Shown here one piece after another: positions 4,090 to 58,038 of a stretch of DNA of 64,000 bases. Origin of the DNA: Patescibacteria group bacterium (lineage in GTDB: Bacteria > Patescibacteriota > Minisyncoccia > JAHIHE01 > JAGLIN01); NCBI GenBank assembly GCA_029210775.1, contig JARGGI010000001.1, positions 16,493 through 80,492 of the forward strand. The letters are read 5' to 3'. The position numbers and the translations under genes were made by a program. Under the pieces are notes generated by a model. The model ran no database searches. It saw nothing but the letters and a program-made list of their open reading frames with translations, and had not been told where the DNA came from. Numbering within the stretch: position 1 is the first letter of the stretch; every line of letters starts with the position of its first letter.

Positions 4090-7150
<3,061 letters not shown>

Positions 7151-14310: not shown

Positions 14311-14415
14311 TAATATTATTTCATATAAATTTGGTCCTTCTTTAAAGGATAGTCCTTTAGTGTTTTTTTGTTTTATATCACTATATTAACCAGCCTTCCT
14401 TTCACAAAAATCACT
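14311..14415. repeat. X' (14311-14337) and Y' (14354-14415) repeat copies; Y' contains the last 12 codons of leuS
   Basis: see 13019-13112. Confidence 0.8.
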
Positions 14416-17400
14416 TTTCTAACTTCTTTGCCTGCAATCCATTTCTGAATCTTTTCGCTTTCAAGAGCGAGTTTTTTTGCTTCTTCTTCTGAAATATTAG
14501 CTGGGACTTTAATTTGATCACGGAGCTTTCCGTTGATTTGGATGACAAGATTTATTTCGGTTTCTTTGATAAAAAGGGGATTAATTTTTGGCCATGATTG
14601 CAAGTGAATACTTTTCTTTTCTCCTAACATTTCCCAAAGTTCTTCGGTAATATGTGGAGCAAAAGGGGACAATAAAATTAAAAATATTGAATACTGGGAA
14701 TTAAATATCATTTTTTCTTTTTCCATCTCATTCAATAAAATCATCATTTGAGAAATCGCAGTATTAAATTTCATGTTTTCAATATCTTCTGTTACTTTCT
14801 TGATAGTTTTATGCAATAATGATTCTATTTTTTGATCTTGTAGGAATGCAGAATCTTGCGTACTTTTTTGCAAATATTCAATCAATTTATCAGTAGCTTG
14901 TTTTCTGTGATCAAATCTATATTTATCTTCACTGGAACATTCGCCAAAAGATTTATTTAAAACATTTGGCATAAAAATAGAATCGTAACCGAAACCTCGT
15001 GTTCCGCGTGATTTTTCTAAAATTTCTCCTTCGCATTTTCCTTCAAATTGATTGTATTTTTTATCTTTTGGATTATATAAGGTAACTACGGATTGAAAAT
15101 AAGCAGACCTATCTTTTTTATCTACAAGTTCTTTAAAAATTTTTTGATATGCTTTTTTATAATCACCTTCTGAATATCGGCTTGAAAAAACTCCTGGACG
15201 TCCATCAAGCGTGTTAATACACAAACCACTATCATCAGCAATTGTTAGATAGCCAGTTTTTTGGGCATAATATTTTGCTTTAATTAAAGAATTTTCTGCA
15301 AAGGTTTTTCCATTTTCTTCAGGTTCTTCAATTGATTTATCAATGTCTTTTAATGAAATTATATTAAAATTAGCAAGATGATTTTTTAGTTCTTTTAGTT
15401 TTCCTTGATTATTTGTAGCGATTAATATTATTTTATTTTTATATGGGAACGCAAAATCTTGTGTTTCTACATTAGAATTCACAATATTATGTTTTTTTAT
15501 CTTTTTTTGCATATTCCAAACTCTTTCCAAAAATCTGTTCATTCCAATTAAGCTTGTCGTGTTCCATGGAATGGCGTCGCCATAAGGACCCATAAACATT
15601 TCATAAAGGCGAAGTGTATCCGACCCATATTGCTTGATGACATCATCGGGATTAACAACATTTCCGCGTGACTTGCTCATCTTTTGTCCATTTTCGGCGA
15701 GAATCATTCCATGCGATCTTCTTTTAGCGTATGGCTCACGAGTATTTACATATCCGAGATCAAACAAAAATTTATGCCAAAAACGAGAATATAATAAATG
15801 CAAAGTAGTGTGTTCCATACCGCCATTGTATAAATCAACTGGCATCCAATACTCAATTTTCTTGCGTGAAGCAAATTCTTTTTTGTTTTTTGGATCTAAA
15901 TATCGCAAGAAATACCAACTTGATCCCGCCCAATTTGGCATCGTGTCCGTTTCTCTTTTCGCCTCGCCTTTGCATTTTGGGCATTTCACTTCTACCCATT
16001 TCTTTATATTAGCAAGAGGAGATTCTCCCGTTTCTGTCGGTTCATAATTTTTGACATTTGGAAGCTCAAGTGGGAGATTCTTTTCATTTAATGGAATATT
16101 TTTAGTTATGTTTATAATTTCAAATTCCCAACCGACAAGACCGTTTTTTTGAATTTTATTAAGATAATCATTTGTAAAACTAAAACATTTTTCAAGTTCT
16201 TTAAAACTTCTAATCTTTGTGTTTGGGATAATCTTTTTTATCAAATCTTTTTTATTAAACAATTTTTCCAAGTTTTCAAAATTATAAACTTTATTAATTT
16301 TTATAACCTCAAACTCATTCGTATTTTTATTGTTTATTTTAATAAAATCTCCAATTTTAATATTACCAAAATATTTATCTTTTTCTTCAGGATTAAAAGC
16401 TCTTGTTTCAACAGTTTTTTTTCTGCAAATAATTTGATCCCAAATTTTATTTACTCTGAAATTTAATTCCATTTTAATGTTCAATTTTTTCAAACCACAT
16501 TCCTTGCATTTCACAATCGGAATTGGTTCACCCCAATAATGCTGGCGTGAAAAAATCCAATCTCGCAATTTGAAATTTACAGCCTTTTTACCAAGTTTAT
16601 TTTTTTCTAACCAAGCAGTGATTTCTTTTTTTGCTTCGGGAGTCTCAAGACCATTTAGAAAATCTGAATTAACATTTACACCATCTTCTTTAAAACAACC
16701 AGCTTTGCCTATTAAGCGTTGCCACAGCATTTTTTGATTGGATAGATTTAAAAAATCATCCATCTTGTCAGAATCGATCCAGACTGTATTATGGTTTATT
16801 GTTTCTTCTTCGCTTGGTTTTTCCAAACTTTCATCTTCCAATTTAAAAAGTAATCCTTGTTCAACTGAATAGCGGTTCTCATCTTTATGTCTATTAAAGA
16901 AAGTATTGTATTGTTCGCTTCCCAGATGACGGATAAATTTCAAATTTTTATAGCCAGTTTCTTCCTGAATTTCTCTTTTTCCTGCTTCTTGGGCAGTTTC
17001 TCCTTCTTCAATTCCACCAATGATTCCCGTGTGCCAATTAAATTTTTTCCAATCAAGACAAAGATATTTATCCTCATTCCAATGCTTCAGAAAAGCAATT
17101 ACAATTTTTTGACGTACTGTTTTTTTCTCAGGTCTAATCACATCATCTCCACTAAAAACCTTAAATAATGGAGCAACTACTTCTTTAATCTTGATACCAA
17201 ATTTCTTTGCAAACTCAAAATCTCTTTCATCGTGAGCAGGAACTGCCATAATGGCGCCAGTGCCATAAGAAGAGAGAACATAGTCCGCAATCCAGATTGG
17301 AATTTCTTCGTTACTTGCTGGATTTATTGCTTTTATACCTTTCAATTCAACGCCAGATTTTTCTTTGGCTAAATCAGTTCTGTCTAAATCAGATTTATTT

Positions 17401-18437
17401 TTTGCTTGTAAAATATATTTTTCAACTTCACTGTAGTTTTCAATATTATCTTTTAATTTTTCAATTAAACTGTGTTCGGGCGATAAGACCATATAAGTAC
17501 ATCCGAAAAGAGTGTCGGGGCGAGTGGTGAAAACTTTAATGCTACTGTCATTGCAAGCGGAGTGAAGCAATTCTGAATTTATAGGCGAAACCTGTATTTG
17601 ACTGGATTGCTTCGTCGCTTTGCTCCTCACAATGACAGAAAATTTAATTTCTGCTCCCTCTGACTTTCCAATCCAATTAATTTGTTGGGTTCTGATTTTA
17701 TTTAAATAATCAACCGAATCTAAATCTTTAATTAATCTGTCAGCATATTTTGTAATTCTCAGCATCCATTGTCTCATTACTTTTCTTTCTGCTAAGGCAC
17801 CACATCGCTCGCACGCACCATTAACGACCTCTTCATTAGCTAGTCCAATTTTGCAACTGGGACACCAATTAATCGCCATCTCTTTTTCATAAGCAAGTCT
17901 ATGATTATCAATAAATTCTTTTTTTTCAATTTCATTCAAATTTTTTGGAATTTTTAAATCTTCAATCGGTTTTGCTTTATCTGATTTTTTATCATAAAAA
18001 CTATTAAACAGTTTCAAAAAAATCCATTGCGTCCATTTATAATATTCTATGTCTGTAGTGTTAATTTCTCGCGACCAGTCAAAACTAGGTCCATAACTTT
18101 TTATTTGGCGTGTAAAATTTTTAATATTATTCTTCGTGACAACTTTTGGATGAGTTTTTGTTTTGATGGCAAAATTTTCCGTAGGCAAACCAAAAGCATC
18201 CCAGCCAATTGGGAACATTACATTATATCCACTCATCCTCCTTTGGCGGGCAACAATGTCAATGGCAATATGACTCCGAAGATGTCCTACATGAAGCCCT
18301 GCTCCAGATGGATATGGAAATTCAATTAAACAATAATACTTTGGTTTTTTTGTAAAATCTTTTGCATCATATATCCCACTTTTATCCCATTTATCTTGCC
18401 ATTTTTTTTCAATATTTCTAAAATTGTATTGTTTCAT
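14373..18437 (-). CDS. leuS: leucyl-tRNA synthetase, 1354 aa, with embedded Nudix, ASCH-like and HAM1/ITPase domains plus a MITE-derived in-frame insert
   Basis: HIGH=HVGH, CP1 TTRPDTLFG, KMSKS present, C-terminal anticodon-binding region; perfect Nudix box GGIEEGETAQEAGKREIQEETGY; HAM1 blocks ATNNQGKLKE / ADDSGLCINTLDGRPGVFSSRY / RGTRGFGYDSIF. Confidence 0.9.
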   Translation of the reverse strand: MKQYNFRNIEKKWQDKWDKSGIYDAKDFTKKPKYYCLIEFPYPSGAGLHVGHLRSHIAIDIVARQRRMSGYNVMFPIGWDAFGLPTENFAIKTKTHPKVVTKNNIKNFTRQIKSYGPSFDWSREINTTDIEYYKWTQWIFLKLFNSFYDKKSDKAKPIEDLKIPKNLNEIEKKEFIDNHRLAYEKEMAINWCPSCKIGLANEEVVNGACERCGALAERKVMRQWMLRITKYADRLIKDLDSVDYLNKIRTQQINWIGKSEGAEIKFSVIVRSKATKQSSQIQVSPINSELLHSACNDSSIKVFTTRPDTLFGCTYMVLSPEHSLIEKLKDNIENYSEVEKYILQAKNKSDLDRTDLAKEKSGVELKGIKAINPASNEEIPIWIADYVLSSYGTGAIMAVPAHDERDFEFAKKFGIKIKEVVAPLFKVFSGDDVIRPEKKTVRQKIVIAFLKHWNEDKYLCLDWKKFNWHTGIIGGIEEGETAQEAGKREIQEETGYKNLKFIRHLGSEQYNTFFNRHKDENRYSVEQGLLFKLEDESLEKPSEEETINHNTVWIDSDKMDDFLNLSNQKMLWQRLIGKAGCFKEDGVNVNSDFLNGLETPEAKKEITAWLEKNKLGKKAVNFKLRDWIFSRQHYWGEPIPIVKCKECGLKKLNIKMELNFRVNKIWDQIICRKKTVETRAFNPEEKDKYFGNIKIGDFIKINNKNTNEFEVIKINKVYNFENLEKLFNKKDLIKKIIPNTKIRSFKELEKCFSFTNDYLNKIQKNGLVGWEFEIINITKNIPLNEKNLPLELPNVKNYEPTETGESPLANIKKWVEVKCPKCKGEAKRETDTMPNWAGSSWYFLRYLDPKNKKEFASRKKIEYWMPVDLYNGGMEHTTLHLLYSRFWHKFLFDLGYVNTREPYAKRRSHGMILAENGQKMSKSRGNVVNPDDVIKQYGSDTLRLYEMFMGPYGDAIPWNTTSLIGMNRFLERVWNMQKKIKKHNIVNSNVETQDFAFPYKNKIILIATNNQGKLKELKNHLANFNIISLKDIDKSIEEPEENGKTFAENSLIKAKYYAQKTGYLTIADDSGLCINTLDGRPGVFSSRYSEGDYKKAYQKIFKELVDKKDRSAYFQSVVTLYNPKDKKYNQFEGKCEGEILEKSRGTRGFGYDSIFMPNVLNKSFGECSSEDKYRFDHRKQATDKLIEYLQKSTQDSAFLQDQKIESLLHKTIKKVTEDIENMKFNTAISQMMILLNEMEKEKMIFNSQYSIFLILLSPFAPHITEELWEMLGEKKSIHLQSWPKINPLFIKETEINLVIQINGKLRDQIKVPANISEEEAKKLALESEKIQKWIAGKEVRKVIFVKGRLVNIVI
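17545..17638. repeat. MITE-like palindromic element (TGTCATT family) inserted in-frame inside leuS CP1
   Basis: CTGTCATTGCAAGCGGAGTGAAGCAATTC...GGATTGCTTCGTCGCTTTGCTCCTCACAATGACAG; encodes SVIVRSKATKQSSQIQVSPINSELLHSACNDSS between EIKF and VFTTRPDT. Confidence 0.8.
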
Positions 18438-33449: not shown

Positions 33450-33842
33450 ATATTGTTATTGCGAGCGAAGCGTGGCAATCATGCGACTATGTCTGTCATT
33501 GCGAGCGAAGCGTGGCAATCCCGAAATAAATTCAGAAAGTTATAATATATCGTTTCGTGAATTTAGACTTGAGATTGCTTCGTCGCTATGCTCCTCGCAA
33601 AGACAATGTTATTCCTCTGTCATTGCGAGCGAAGCGTGGCAATCCCGAAATTAGTTTCAGAAAACTGTAATATATCGTTTCGTGAATTTAGACTCGAGAT
33701 TGCTTCGTCGCTATACTCCTCGCAAAGACAAACACAAGAAAAAAAAGTTTTATGTTAATAAACTCGAGATTGCTTCGTCGCTATACTCCTCGCAAAGACA
33801 GAGATAGATTGTCACATCGCTATGCTCCTCGCAACGACAAAC
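33450..33842. repeat. array of about 4 tandem/partial copies of the TGTCATT MITE family (about 110-120 bp units)
   Basis: alternating arms TGTCATTGCGAGCGAAGCGTGGCAATCCCGAAA and GATTGCTTCGTCGCTATRCTCCTCGCAAAGACA separated by a conserved core ...CGTTTCGTGAATTTAGACTYGAG. Confidence 0.85.
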
Positions 33843-41329: not shown

Positions 41330-41702
41330 TCTTGCGATGACATAGGTTTGTCTTTGCGAGGAGGAACTCGGGATTGCCACACTTCGCTCGCAAAGACAGA
41401 TAAAAAAACTATACGAAATTAAATTTGGGATTGCCGCTCTTCGCTCGCAATGACAGAGGAATAACATTGTCATTACGTGGAGGAACTCGGGATTGCCACG
41501 CTTCGCTCGCAAAGACAGAGGAATAACATTGTCATTGCGAGGAGGAACGACGAAGCAATCTTGAGTCTAAATTCACGATACGATATATTACAGTTTTTTG
41601 AATTTAAATTTGGGATTGCCACACTTTGTTCACAAAGACAGATAAAAAAACTATACGAAATTAAATTTGGGATTGCCACACTTTCCTCGCAATGGCAAGA
41701 GC
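41330..41702. repeat. second array of TGTCATT MITE family, opposite orientation to the 33450-33842 array
   Basis: 41530-41640 is the reverse complement (about 85% identical) of the unit at 33600-33730; additional short-form units TGTCTTTGCGAGGAGGAACTCGGGATTGCCACACTTCGCTCGCAAAGACA. Confidence 0.85.
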
Positions 41703-44850: not shown

Positions 44851-46455
44851 ATGAATCCGAATCTTTTTCGAAAATTGAAAAAATGGAGAGATGAAACGGC
44901 CAAAAAAGAAATGGTTGAGGGGTTTCGAGTTATCCCAAACAGGGCGATTGAGGATGTTGCAATTCTTGAACCAAAAACAAGAGAAGAGTTGACTAATATC
45001 AAAGGAATAAAAGATAAAAAATATTATAAATATGGAAAAGAAATAATTGATATTGTGAAAAGTGAATCAGAAAAAACACAAAACGAAAAGGATCAACCAT
45101 TTTTTCTACCCACCAGACGATCTAATAGAAATATTATCATTCCGCAAACGGAAAATTCTTCTTATGAAAAAATAAGACCATTTGTCCAGGATAATGATAA
45201 TAAAATTGAAAAAACGGATAAAATCTATTCTGTAAGTGAATTTCTTGATCGCTTGAATGAAAAGCTAATGTCTGAGGAAATGAGAGTGAAAGGTGAAATC
45301 ACAAGCGTTGACGAAAGAGAAAAGGTTATTTATTTTAGCTTGAAAGATAAAGAAGATGAAAGCGTTGTCAATTGCCTAATATTTCGATATCAATATGAAA
45401 TTTCAGGTATAAAACTTGAAATTGGAAATGAGATAATTGCAAATGGATATCCAGAAATTTATAAACCAACAGGAAGATTGAGTTTAAATGTAAACCTAAT
45501 TGAAATTGCTGGGCAAGGCGCTCTCAAAAAAGCTTATGACAAGCTTAGAGAACAATTTGAAAAAGAAGGCCTGTTTGCGTTGGAAAGAAAAAAACAATTA
45601 CCAAAACTCCCACAAACAATAGCGCTTATAACCTCATCGCAAGGAGCTGCAATTGGGGATTTCACAACAAATTTAGGAAATTACGGATTTAAGATTAAAT
45701 TCATTAACTCAAACGTAGAAGGAAAAAAAGCAATTTTTGATCTTATAAAAGCAATAAAACAAGTTAAAAGAATGAAAAACTTAGATGTTTTAGTGATAGT
45801 TCGAGGTGGTGGAAGCTTAGAAAGTCTGCAAGCGTTTAACAATGAAAAACTCGTTAGAGAGATAATTACTCTCAAAATTCCTATAATTTGCGGAATAGGT
45901 CACGAAAAAGATATTTCTCTTGTTTCTTTAGTTGCTGACAGCGCAGTTTCAACGCCTACCGCAGCAGCGCGAACCGTAAGAGATTCTTGGGATAGAGCAG
46001 TAGAAAAATTAAGTCACGATGAATCTATTATTATTAATTCATTTGAAAGACATTTGTATAAGTCAAAACAAAAAATTGAAACATTATCTTTTCACTTGAG
46101 TCATAAATTTGAAAATATTCTACAAAGATTTTCTGATATAAAAAATGATTTTGTAAACATATTAGATAATATAAAATATTCAATTGAAGGCTTAAAAGAA
46201 AAAATTGAAAATTACAAAAAATCAATCTTGTCTAATTATAATCAGGCTGTTTATAATGCAAAAGATAAAATTATTAATTTCGAGAATATAATTAATATTA
46301 ACAATCCAGAAAGACAATTAAAACTCGGCTATAGTATTGTTTCACTTGAAGGAAATATCATTAAAAGCATAGAACAGATAAAAAAGGGGGATACTCTTGA
46401 TATAAAAATTTCAGACGGCAACATCAAAACTGAAGTCAAAGATATAAAAAAATAA
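44851..46455 (+). CDS. xseA: exodeoxyribonuclease VII large subunit with N-terminal HRDC-like domain
   Basis: OB-fold (MRVKGEITSVDER..VIYFSLKD), IALITSSQGAAIGDF, IVRGGGSLESLQAFNNE, CGIGHEKDISL; N-term WRDETAKKEMVEGFRVIPNRAIEDVA HRDC-like. Confidence 0.85.
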   Translation: MNPNLFRKLKKWRDETAKKEMVEGFRVIPNRAIEDVAILEPKTREELTNIKGIKDKKYYKYGKEIIDIVKSESEKTQNEKDQPFFLPTRRSNRNIIIPQTENSSYEKIRPFVQDNDNKIEKTDKIYSVSEFLDRLNEKLMSEEMRVKGEITSVDEREKVIYFSLKDKEDESVVNCLIFRYQYEISGIKLEIGNEIIANGYPEIYKPTGRLSLNVNLIEIAGQGALKKAYDKLREQFEKEGLFALERKKQLPKLPQTIALITSSQGAAIGDFTTNLGNYGFKIKFINSNVEGKKAIFDLIKAIKQVKRMKNLDVLVIVRGGGSLESLQAFNNEKLVREIITLKIPIICGIGHEKDISLVSLVADSAVSTPTAAARTVRDSWDRAVEKLSHDESIIINSFERHLYKSKQKIETLSFHLSHKFENILQRFSDIKNDFVNILDNIKYSIEGLKEKIENYKKSILSNYNQAVYNAKDKIINFENIININNPERQLKLGYSIVSLEGNIIKSIEQIKKGDTLDIKISDGNIKTEVKDIKK

Positions 46456-56529: not shown

Positions 56530-58038
56530 ATGAAAAAAATCAAAAATGCAAACTGGCCTGCCTATAAAAATAAAATGTTAATAGTCGGAAATAAAAAAAG
56601 TCAAGTAGCTGTATGTACTTTATGGACAAAGAAAGAAATGGTAGGTCAAATTTTAGATTTAAAAACAGTCGCAGTGATTGGTAATTTATACTCTCCTAAA
56701 AAGGGGGTTAGTTTTTTAATTAGAAATATTTTAGCAAATCCAAATATTAGATATTTGATTGTTTGTGGCTTGGACAATTCAAAAAGTGGGCAAGTTTTGA
56801 TTGATTTTTCAAATAACGGATTTAAAGGAATTACAGATGAAAAAAATAATCTTTTATATTGGCAAGTAATTAGTGAAACAGAAAATAAAATAGATACTGA
56901 AATTGAAAGAGAAGCTATAGAACTATTTAGAGAAAAAGTAAAAATTATTGATCTTAGAAATGAAAGAAATTTTAAAGAGATTCAAGAGAAAATTAATTTT
57001 TTAGATCAAAACCTTCCTCCCTTCTCCTGCGAGCCTTTAATTTTTCCAGATGAAAAAAAAGATACTGTAGAAAGTTTTCCATCTGAAGACTCAGTACATA
57101 CTATTCGAGGAAAAAAAATAGCTGAAACTTGGTTGAAAATTCTTGATCATATTTTAAGATTTGGAAGAACCGATCAAACTTCTTATCAAAATCAGCAAAA
57201 AGAAATCATAGATATTGTTTCTGTAATCACTGATGAAGATCCTGAAAATCTCTATATTCCCGAGTGGCTGCCTAATGATGCTGAGCATATGAAAGAATAT
57301 GCACCAACTGTTTTATCTGCATTTTGCCCTCAAGGAGCCGCCTATACATATGGCTCCAGAATGAGAAGCTATTTTGGAGTTGATCAAATTCAGGAGGTAA
57401 TCAATCGAATTAGGGAGGAAAAACATACTCGCAGGGCTATGGTAAATCTTTTAGATCCAAGAGTTGATTCTTATAGTAAAAATCCGCCATGTCTAAATCA
57501 TTGTTGGTTTAGAGTACAAGGAGATAAATTACATTTAGTAGCGACACTAAGAAGCAATGATATGTTTGATGCTTGGCCAGAAAATGCACTTGCGTTGCGG
57601 CTTTTGCAAAATATTGTTTTCAAGAAAATAGTAAAATCTTATTCAGAAGTTAAGCTTGGTAATCTTGTAATTCATTCATTGTCAGCTCATATCTACGATG
57701 ATTCATGGAAGGAGGCTAAAAAAATTGTCGAACAACATCACAAGGCAGTGTTTCCTAGTGCAAATCTTGAACAGGACTGTAGGGGAAATTTCATAATAAC
57801 AGTTGAAAACTCTGAAATTGTGGTTGAGCACTATTCTTCTAACGAAACACTTTTAGCGACTTATAGGAATAAAAAGGCGATGCCAATATACTTTGAAATG
57901 AGTAGAAACGGAGCAGTTTCAGTTATATCACATGCTTTATATATTGGTACAGAACTGCAAAAAGCTGAATTAGCAATAAAACTAATGCTACCCTACAAGC
58001 AGGATATTGAATTAAATATAAACAAGCTCAAAATATAA
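56530..58038 (+). CDS. thymidylate synthase (ThyA-fold) with about 250-aa N-terminal extension of unknown function
   Basis: C-terminal half: RRAMVNLLDP...NPPCLNHCWFRVQGDKLHLVATLRSNDMFDAWPENA aligns to ThyA RR...NP..PPCH..QFYV.DGKLSCQLYQRSCD..LGLPFNIA (catalytic Cys and Asn conserved). Confidence 0.7.
   Translation: MKKIKNANWPAYKNKMLIVGNKKSQVAVCTLWTKKEMVGQILDLKTVAVIGNLYSPKKGVSFLIRNILANPNIRYLIVCGLDNSKSGQVLIDFSNNGFKGITDEKNNLLYWQVISETENKIDTEIEREAIELFREKVKIIDLRNERNFKEIQEKINFLDQNLPPFSCEPLIFPDEKKDTVESFPSEDSVHTIRGKKIAETWLKILDHILRFGRTDQTSYQNQQKEIIDIVSVITDEDPENLYIPEWLPNDAEHMKEYAPTVLSAFCPQGAAYTYGSRMRSYFGVDQIQEVINRIREEKHTRRAMVNLLDPRVDSYSKNPPCLNHCWFRVQGDKLHLVATLRSNDMFDAWPENALALRLLQNIVFKKIVKSYSEVKLGNLVIHSLSAHIYDDSWKEAKKIVEQHHKAVFPSANLEQDCRGNFIITVENSEIVVEHYSSNETLLATYRNKKAMPIYFEMSRNGAVSVISHALYIGTELQKAELAIKLMLPYKQDIELNINKLKI

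Follow-up and report, generated by a model that had tools for sequence, protein, structure and literature searches.

The window examined here is a 64-kb stretch (64,000 nucleotides, numbered from its first letter) of contig JARGGI010000001.1, from a metagenome-assembled genome (MAG) of a Patescibacteria group bacterium. It has about 30% G+C and an rRNA operon at its start. On its reverse strand lies leuS, the gene for leucyl-tRNA synthetase (LeuRS), in the order TatD - leuS - M42 peptidase with GlyRS nearby, an arrangement shared with a relative, P0011. The gene at 14373-18437 is a continuous frame of 1354 codons with 0 internal stops, and the LeuRS sequence within it is interrupted by five inserts, three of which are whole domains of the Nudix, ASCH and RdgB/HAM1 families. 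The limits of the inserts were taken as the gaps in an alignment to the Thermus thermophilus LeuRS structure 1H3N, and the four insert sites compared among relatives below are called S1, SA, SB and SC. From the N terminus of the protein onwards, the layout is as follows.

14373..18437 (-): leuS open reading frame (ORF), 1354 aa, with five lineage-specific inserts; TIGR00396; product 100% identical to MDF1497753.1
18003..18437 (-): catalytic core, N-terminal half, aa 1-145; aligns with 1H3N 1-145
18282-18293 (-): HIGH motif, here HVGH, aa 49-52; read from the sequence and aligned to 1H3N
17898..18002 (-): 35-aa clade-specific peptide, aa 146-180, not in 1H3N; inserted at 1H3N 146-147, before ZN-1
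17634..17897 (-): ZN-1 module and linker to the CP1 editing domain, aa 181-268; aligns with 1H3N 148-236
17535..17645 (-): in-frame copy of a ~110-bp palindromic repeat at site S1, encoding the insert aa 269-298 (17544-17633); at 1H3N 237-241, first CP1 hairpin
17175..17543 (-): CP1 editing domain, first part, aa 299-421; PF13603, E=1e-54; aligns with 1H3N 242-362
16698..17174 (-): Nudix hydrolase domain inside CP1, aa 422-580, site SA; PF00293; at 1H3N 363-375, within CP1 (~224-417)
16491..16697 (-): last part of CP1, then catalytic core again, aa 581-649, as far as CKEC, the first CxxC of ZN-2; aligns with 1H3N 376-444
16098..16490 (-): ASCH (PUA-like) domain, aa 650-780, site SB; at 1H3N 444/445, between the ZN-2 knuckles Cys439/442 and Cys484/487
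15507..16097 (-): catalytic core, second half, aa 781-977; aligns with 1H3N 445-593 and 635-695
15672-15686 (-): KMSKS, aa 918-922; aligned to 1H3N
14841..15506 (-): RdgB/HAM1 domain, aa 978-1199, site SC; PF01725 and TIGR00042; at 1H3N 696-716, after the last core helix and ahead of the Anticodon_1 bundle
14376..14840 (-): anticodon-binding helical domain and C-terminal domain, aa 1200-1354; PF08264, E=8e-28; aligns with 1H3N 717-876

An earlier sequence-only reading had called this ORF a bona fide LeuRS about 500 aa longer than typical, and both statements hold. The protein scores 929 bits against the bacterial LeuRS equivalog TIGR00396 (cutoff 548, E=1.9e-279), and a phmmer comparison with 1H3N covers the full core in seven colinear blocks (E=9e-188). 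The ZN-1 cysteines (CPSC...CERC) and those of ZN-2 (CKEC...CPKC, the CPKC being the second knuckle, after the ASCH insert) are kept, as are the editing-site motifs TTRPDT (in TTRPDTLFG) and AVPAHDERD (AVPAHDERDFEFA) of CP1, with the conserved Asp. The domain limits and zinc ligands of the T. thermophilus enzyme, which we take to be those of Cusack et al. 2000, place the zinc cysteines at 1H3N positions consistent with the alignment obtained here. Judged by its sequence, the product is a genuine bacterial class Ia LeuRS with its catalytic, zinc-binding and editing motifs intact. It shares with canonical bacterial LeuRS (1H3N/2BYT, E. coli 4AQ7) a Rossmann fold with HIGH and KMSKS, ZN-1, CP1 placed after ZN-1, ZN-2, the anticodon bundle and the C-terminal domain, and differs from them by its five inserts, some 516 additional residues (516 aa is the excess over the nearest insert-free relative, of 838 aa and ~80% core identity) and the lack of a leucine-specific domain. 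The alignment shows no counterpart to 1H3N residues 594-634, and 'AENGQ' alone stands ahead of KMSKS (15672-15700(-), aa ~910-922). The LeuRS of Mycoplasma mobile is reported likewise to lack a leucine-specific domain and to carry in its place a tetrapeptide, to which AENGQ is comparable (PMC3643597).

The three large inserts are genuine domains, as shown by profile scans and by the alignment with LeuRS, and not spurious matches within LeuRS itself. The Nudix insert is recognised in the whole protein at aa 468-559 (PF00293, 39.5 bits against a gathering score of 21.1) and, when scanned in isolation, at 44 bits (E=3e-11). It has the Nudix fold, and its Nudix box GGIEEGETAQEAGKREIQEETGY (aa 474-496, 16950-17018) fits GX5EX7REUXEEXGU at every position. 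Outside the box it matches solved structures by phmmer no better than E=0.018, and it has conserved motifs of its own, KHW-EDKYLCLDWKK and AHKxxNR. Its structural neighbours include hydrolases of ApnA, with all Nudix classes scoring alike. Compared with known Nudix hydrolases (MutT/Nudix 2azw; the ApnA hydrolases Ndx1 and Rv2985), it forms a separate subfamily nested in an editing domain. The sequence-only reading had thus seen the domain and its perfect box correctly, but had put it after CP1 and at about 16780-17140; it extends over 16698-17174 and lies inside CP1, about 40 residues before the end of that domain.

The ASCH insert is divergent. On its own it gives no match to PF04266 at E<=10, and scans against Pfam and NCBIfam return PH_3 and DUF5377, both below threshold. 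Homologous inserts of the same type match PF04266 in 16 of 27 cases (best E=1e-4), and a fold search finds an ASCH/PUA-like beta-barrel; the family-level scan and the fold search together settle its identity. The GxKxxExR signature is represented by KTVETR (aa 674-679, 16401-16418), with Cys-Arg in place of Gly-x ahead of the Lys, and in the 35 homologous inserts, a well-conserved family, the positions K, R, NPxE, FG, Y, G and W do not vary, KxxExR among them. Relative to known ASCH proteins (PH0355, 2z0t; the E. coli N4-acetylcytidine amidohydrolase YqfB, 9kyf; TRIP4) the insert is divergent and falls under Pfam thresholds. The Thr that belongs to the proposed catalytic triad of YqfB is replaced by a Glu, so there is no reason to infer amidohydrolase chemistry. 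An ASCH-like domain had been proposed here before, within the leucyl-specific region; this placement is wrong, since the insert sits at 1H3N 444/445, between the ZN-2 CxxC knuckles, and the domain of residues 594-634 is missing.

For the HAM1 insert, PF01725 matches the whole protein at aa 1004-1188 over profile positions 1-186 of 186 (E=1.8e-56; E=6e-58, again with the full profile, for the isolated insert), with 191-196 bits against 22.5, and the TIGR00042 score, 172 bits, lies above its cutoff of 145. All RdgB motifs align with the structures 3TQU, 4BNQ and 1K7K (ATNNQGK, EENG, ADDSGL, GRPGVFSSRY, GFGYDS and DHR, with GFGYDS standing for GFGYDP and DHR for SHR), which bears out the earlier description of a complete HAM1 domain; the Pfam match spans 14874-15428, where about 14900-15480 had been given. 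The likeness to known RdgB/HAM1/ITPA enzymes thus extends to the full length and to every catalytic motif; those enzymes are free proteins of ~195 aa, whereas this one is embedded in the middle of a protein. RdgB/HAM1/ITPA enzymes act as dimers. The 35-aa peptide at aa 146-180, for its part, has no Pfam match and no recognisable domain, and is found in the closest relatives at 57-74% identity. By its sequence, the LeuRS encoded at this locus is genuine and intact, and the three enzyme domains that sit in its loops are complete and conserved.

The same architecture is found in independent assemblies, where homologous LeuRS (P0002, P0003 and P0006 from ENA; P0004 from JGI, on a 67-kb contig) carry the same three inserts and are 67-75% identical to the protein described here. 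Compared with this gene, the HAM1 domains of these four closest three-insert LeuRS are 63-69% identical, the ASCH domains 64-69% and the Nudix domains 61-72% in three of them (29% in P0006), while the anticodon-binding domain is 70-76% identical and the core about 80-87%, most of its segments falling at 78-89%. Key residues are kept across the wider set of inserts: the Nudix box in 72 of 90 (the 18 degenerate boxes being mostly S1 copies), DDSG in 33 of 34 and GFGYD in 29 of 34 HAM1 domains, KxxExR in 35 of 35 ASCH inserts, and GxSxG in 21 of 26 of the serine hydrolases that occupy some of the same sites. These identities and the retained motifs indicate that the inserts are maintained under purifying selection.

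These observations leave almost no room for a technical origin, that is, for a chimeric assembly or fused gene call joining leuS, Nudix, ASCH and rdgB genes, or for intein-like elements that are removed from the protein. Nothing beyond the MAG source of the sequence speaks for an artefact. The frame is open and free of stops, the inserts lie at loops with the LeuRS sequence resuming in register behind each of them, and the insertion points recur, to the residue, in dozens of homologues from NCBI, ENA, JGI and Logan assemblies. Mis-assembly is excluded by the occurrence of one and the same architecture in four independent assemblies, and the word chimeric, used for this ORF in the sequence-only reading, does not apply in the sense of an artefact. 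Inteins too sit in frame in essential conserved proteins and are patchily distributed; they carry Hint domains and splice residues, whereas the inserts described here have neither and would be expected to remain in the mature protein as enzymes. Scans of the whole protein (E<=1) and of the inserts taken singly (E<=10) gave no intein or Hint family, and the junctions are devoid of the C/S/T and HN splice residues, so an intein identity was rejected.

To place this architecture among its relatives, the 120 best LeuRS matches were aligned and the segments between conserved anchors extracted for each site; the 202 inserts of at least 60 aa so obtained were clustered, and the cluster representatives scanned against Pfam. 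The families found, with the sites they occupy, are listed here.

Nudix: SA in 83 LeuRS, S1 in 7; a second Nudix type at S1 or SC
HAM1: SC in 35, S1 in 3
ASCH type: SB in 35
PF06821 serine hydrolase: SA in 17, SB in 9, S1 in 3
Nucleotidyltransferases: SA
PD-(D/E)XK nuclease: S1
DUF559 endonuclease: S1
Canonical PF04266 ASCH: S1
One unknown family: SA

Each of the four sites is variably filled or empty among the 120 homologues, and close relatives show every combination, with zero to four inserts. Insert-free LeuRS of 837-842 aa have cores ~80% identical to that of the LeuRS in the window. Fitch parsimony on a neighbour-joining tree of 759 core columns requires at least 10, 13, 21 and 6 state changes at S1, SA, SB and SC, respectively, and at least 50 gain, loss or swap events overall; these counts are rough lower bounds, as the tree has no support values. 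The inserts also form site-specific subfamilies: S1 Nudix domains are 63-82% identical to one another and 37-48% identical to the SA Nudix of the same protein. Replacement within a site is suggested by P0006, whose core segments are 80-86% identical to those of the LeuRS in the window, yet whose Nudix domain is just 29% identical to the Nudix found here.

The architecture at this locus is therefore one state of a lineage-wide mosaic, in which insertions are frequent and combinatorial and affect other synthetases as well. It had been described as highly unusual, which is true in comparison with textbook synthetases but not within the lineage, given the 83 of 120 LeuRS with a Nudix domain at the same site, the 35 with HAM1 and the 35 with ASCH. 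Domain capture in a reduced genome, another of the earlier suggestions, is the best general description of what is seen in this Patescibacteria MAG. Essential synthetases joined to unrelated extra domains are known elsewhere (GST, WHEP and EMAPII domains in eukaryotic synthetases; IleRS with an N-acetyltransferase, NF040702), the NF040702 proteins being a precedent among bacterial class I synthetases. What sets the present case apart from them is that several hydrolases are inserted internally, nested rather than terminal, and vary combinatorially between close relatives. It also departs from a 2026 survey of domain insertions, in which the LeuRS editing domain figures as insertion-only and never as a host (PMC13114784): in most of the 120 homologues, as in the LeuRS described here, CP1 hosts a Nudix domain.

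Counterparts of all three domains exist outside LeuRS. Free rdgB genes of 191-198 aa occur in Patescibacteria assemblies as separate genes in a conserved LemA-M48 peptidase-rdgB context, at the following loci.

L124 6001-6582: free rdgB
L125 5796-6377: free rdgB
L126 1830-2408 and 4036-4758: free rdgB locus; the contig also has a PF01797 Y1 transposase gene (IS200/RAYT type)

The free proteins are 66-78% identical to the HAM1 domain described here, those at the three loci listed 66-76%, compared with 63-69% for the embedded HAM1 of the nearest LeuRS relatives, and in a neighbour-joining tree they fall within the embedded clade, as sisters to this HAM1. This nesting suggests a recent exchange between free and embedded forms, in either direction. 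Nudix domains also occur as free genes, encoding 157-160 aa with 40-47% identity to the insert (4 matches in a word-index search). One of them (157 aa, 40% identical) adjoins a free PF06821 serine-hydrolase gene at L003 3296-4465, a contig that has a second Nudix gene; Nudix and PF06821 are the families that alternate at site SA. Within the 64-kb window, the stretch that was searched, there is no stand-alone paralogue of Nudix, ASCH or HAM1, and no homologue of LemA, M48, SHMT or Y1 transposase, which were sought to see whether an ancestral rdgB locus had been left empty.

The ASCH type is a rare family, with 220 representatives found by a profile of the insert among 1.84 billion proteins. They include free proteins of 116-135 aa and P0138, a protein of 291 aa that is not a synthetase and in which an ASCH-type domain (aa 2-127) precedes a Nudix domain (aa 157-266). 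Their fusion suggests a functional link between the two cassette families. Among the large host proteins scanned, 18 of 19 are tRNA synthetases (LeuRS, ValRS-type and one class II enzyme of Asp/Asn/Lys-type), so that, unlike known ASCH proteins, this type is found mostly inside synthetases. Seven ValRS-type proteins from Patescibacteria (P0191, P0145, P0172, P0139, P0141, P0156 and P0161) combine it with PF00300 histidine-phosphatase or PF06821 inserts, and the class II enzyme P0159 has it between the OB fold and the catalytic core. The presence of the ASCH type in ValRS-type and class II enzymes shows that the inserts are not confined to LeuRS.

The fourth site, S1, is filled in this gene by DNA of another kind. 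As a single strand it folds back on itself into a long hairpin with imperfect pairing, whose stability (z=-3.2) was reached by none of 200 shuffled sequences, and a 22-nt arm of it recurs in three further copies at 33572-33788, against 0 expected. BLAST places the same ~110-bp element in tandem clusters in the intergenic stretches 33458-33840 and 41348-41700; the arms of this repeat family read TGTCWTTGCGAGGAGCATAGCGACGAAGCAATC ... GGGATTGCCACGCTTCGCTCGCAATGACAG. The hairpin and the copies elsewhere in the window identify the S1 insert as an in-frame copy of a dispersed palindromic repeat. Its 30-aa peptide is 5-33% identical among relatives, which retain the end of the element in the same frame ('...PRND'). 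The palindromic-repeat cluster has no match in Rfam, and a general repeat scan of leuS gave nothing but low-complexity AT-rich matches.

A second palindrome is associated with HAM1 in related LeuRS genes. In P0011 an identical 27-mer, GTAGAGACGCGATTTATCGCGTCTAAA (read as VETRFIASK, with GTAG at its start), flanks HAM1 on both sides, and in P0041 a single copy stands in the empty SC site. Its loci are given below.

L001 3571-3597 and 4186-4212: 27-nt palindrome
L002 8178-8204: 27-nt palindrome
L004-L123: further loci of the element

Variants of GTAGAGACGCGATTTATCGCGTCTAAA lie at the HAM1 junctions of most members of the P0001-P0018 clade; in the P0022-P0036 clade, no hairpin borders the HAM1 cassette. 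The 20-nt core of the element occurs at more than 120 loci with unrelated flanks, usually with GTAG ahead of it, in cyanobacteria, Bacteroidota, Omnitrophota, Methylobacter and Patescibacteria. GTAG followed by a hairpin is a hallmark of repetitive extragenic palindromic (REP) sequences, and the 27-nt palindrome looks, from sequence features, like a ubiquitous and very small REP-like mobile element. In the gene described here, the peptides at the two HAM1 junctions, VETQDFAF and STQDSAF, look like eroded versions of VETRFIASK; the DNA similarity is not significant by itself, and the window holds no intact copy of the GTAG-hairpin element within 3 mismatches. Local alignments of the junction DNA were no better than those of shuffled sequences (91/300 for Nudix, 130/300 for ASCH and 60/300 for HAM1), so no target-duplication signature is claimed for this gene. 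Read with caution, the data suggest that small palindromic elements gather in the very loops into which domains are taken. In-frame copies of palindromic elements within genes are known in Rickettsia. Both these elements and REP sequences or REPINs (PMC3116915) resemble the repeats found here in general form, in being short dispersed palindromes, in occurring in a reduced genome and in having an in-frame copy that leaves an essential gene intact. The likeness to REP and REPINs covers the 30-aa S1 insert and the hairpins at the HAM1 junctions of relatives, not the three enzyme domains. No cognate transposase of REP/RAYT type was found in the 64-kb window; a PF01797 gene is present in the related contig L126, as noted above.

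How should this architecture be understood? The product would be the working LeuRS of the genome, a multi-enzyme that charges and proofreads tRNA-Leu and into whose surface loops three self-folding, motif-complete small enzymes have been inserted in frame: Nudix in CP1, ASCH between the ZN-2 knuckles and HAM1 before the anticodon bundle. Across Patescibacteria, four LeuRS loops that permit insertion have repeatedly been filled, emptied and refilled from a limited set of single-domain hydrolases, and so have loops in other synthetases. As tethered enzymes, HAM1 and Nudix would hydrolyse non-canonical or by-product nucleotides, the ASCH domain would bind or process RNA or nucleotides, and all would work largely apart from LeuRS chemistry. 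The benefit might lie in an obligatory and stoichiometric co-expression of house-cleaning enzymes with an essential, constitutive gene in a tiny, salvage-dependent genome. From the integrity of the motifs and the conservation of the inserts, we think it probable, if far from certain, that the domains are active and mostly independent and that their fusion to LeuRS secures the co-expression of nucleotide house-cleaning with an essential gene. Several points weigh against it. The activity of each domain is read from its motifs; RdgB is normally dimeric, which may be awkward within a monomeric LeuRS; the same few families recur across sites and across synthetases, a hint that they are functionally tied to what synthetases or tRNA do chemically, which a pure 'piggy-back' would not predict; and the nuclease and nucleotidyltransferase inserts at the same sites fit a selfish-DNA component.

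The recurrence of families speaks for another reading, in which the inserts are accessories of the synthetase and owe their convergent recruitment to an action on the chemistry of synthetases or tRNA. The Nudix domain could then destroy by-products or mis-activated intermediates of LeuRS (Ap4A, other ApnA, aminoacyl-adenylates), the ASCH domain could be an extra module for tRNA binding or processing that compensates for the missing leucine-specific domain, and HAM1 could keep ITP and XTP from the ATP site. Such a role would explain why the families return at different loops, each site with a subfamily of its own (Nudix at S1, SA and SC; HAM1 at S1 and SC; the serine hydrolase at S1, SA and SB), and why the rare ASCH type, a PUA-like fold associated with RNA, has synthetases for 18 of its 19 large hosts. 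We nevertheless regard it as rather unlikely. LeuRS does not need the inserts, since close relatives carry none, and enzymes with ~80% identical cores would aminoacylate without them. The same holds for a putative coupling of translation to nucleotide-pool sanitation or to the sensing of RNA modifications, as suggested in the sequence-only reading, which LeuRS could evidently do without. Free-standing versions exist in unrelated loci, the same loops take nucleases and nucleotidyltransferases, and 18 of 90 Nudix inserts have degenerate boxes. It is quite improbable, on the other hand, that the inserts are mainly selfish or neutral passengers, dropped with palindromes into tolerant loops as small ORFs by mobile DNA or allele recombination and persisting because precise loss is rare. 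The dispersed repeat at S1 of this gene, the presence of GTAGAGACGCGATTTATCGCGTCTAAA in the empty SC site of P0041 and around the HAM1 of P0011, the spread of its core over more than 120 loci in many phyla, the PD-(D/E)XK and DUF559 endonuclease domains at S1 of some LeuRS, the Y1 transposase gene near a free rdgB and the very patchy distribution of the inserts would all fit with passengers. Decay would look otherwise than what is seen, however, as the motifs and sequences of the inserts are conserved to a degree similar to the anticodon-binding domain, and a few enzyme families dominate. Moreover, the repeats flanking HAM1 in this gene are degenerate and not significant alone, none are found at the Nudix and ASCH junctions, and the HAM1 cassettes of the P0022-P0036 clade lack hairpins at their borders.

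House-cleaning, accessory function and selfish insertion are not mutually exclusive. A broader proposal, which we consider unlikely as a whole, would make the synthetase genes of Patescibacteria a dedicated platform for domain integration: LeuRS, ValRS and class II enzymes would convergently have taken Nudix, HAM1, ASCH, PF06821 and histidine-phosphatase domains into their loops to deal with by-products, damaged nucleotides or tRNA, as a synthetase-tethered form of quality control. The cassettes might pass from free to embedded form and back, or from one site to another, with the help of REP/RAYT-type hairpins that mark the same loops.

The tRNA synthetases are among the most conserved proteins, and the bacterial ones have been regarded as architecturally fixed. 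That an essential synthetase tolerates and, under selection, keeps three whole enzymes, one of them nested in its editing domain, provides a natural experiment on where large proteins accept domains, how multi-domain proteins arise and how ultra-small host-dependent bacteria package their housekeeping. It should be of interest for synthetase evolution, protein architecture and the biology of the Candidate Phyla Radiation (CPR); should synthetase by-products or tRNA prove to be the substrates of the domains, this would be a form of quality control new to translation. Searches of the literature turned up neither the hairpin sequence nor any account of Nudix, HAM1 or ASCH domains inserted into LeuRS or another synthetase of Patescibacteria. 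The sequences themselves are already public, but are mis- or under-annotated. NCBI names MDF1497753.1, MFA6096607.1 and MDD3007064.1, LeuRS of 1200-1350 aa, 'RdgB/HAM1 family non-canonical purine NTP pyrophosphatase', and the relatives P0016, P0023 and P0028 are likewise named 'RdgB/HAM1 family'. As a result of this naming, leuS would seem to be missing in automated metabolic reconstructions.

Three other features of the window may be mentioned. A 502-aa ORF at 56530-58038 (+) is an unusual fusion of an MtrA-like N-terminal domain, a thymidylate-synthase-like region and a PterinBD-DUF4346 C-terminus. The large subunit of exonuclease VII, encoded at 44851-46455 (+), has an N-terminal HRDC domain before its OB fold. 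Small insertions are common in the rRNA genes of CPR bacteria, and the 23S rRNA gene at 4090-7148 (+), which gives a match of 3059 nt to a model of 2925 positions, may contain one.

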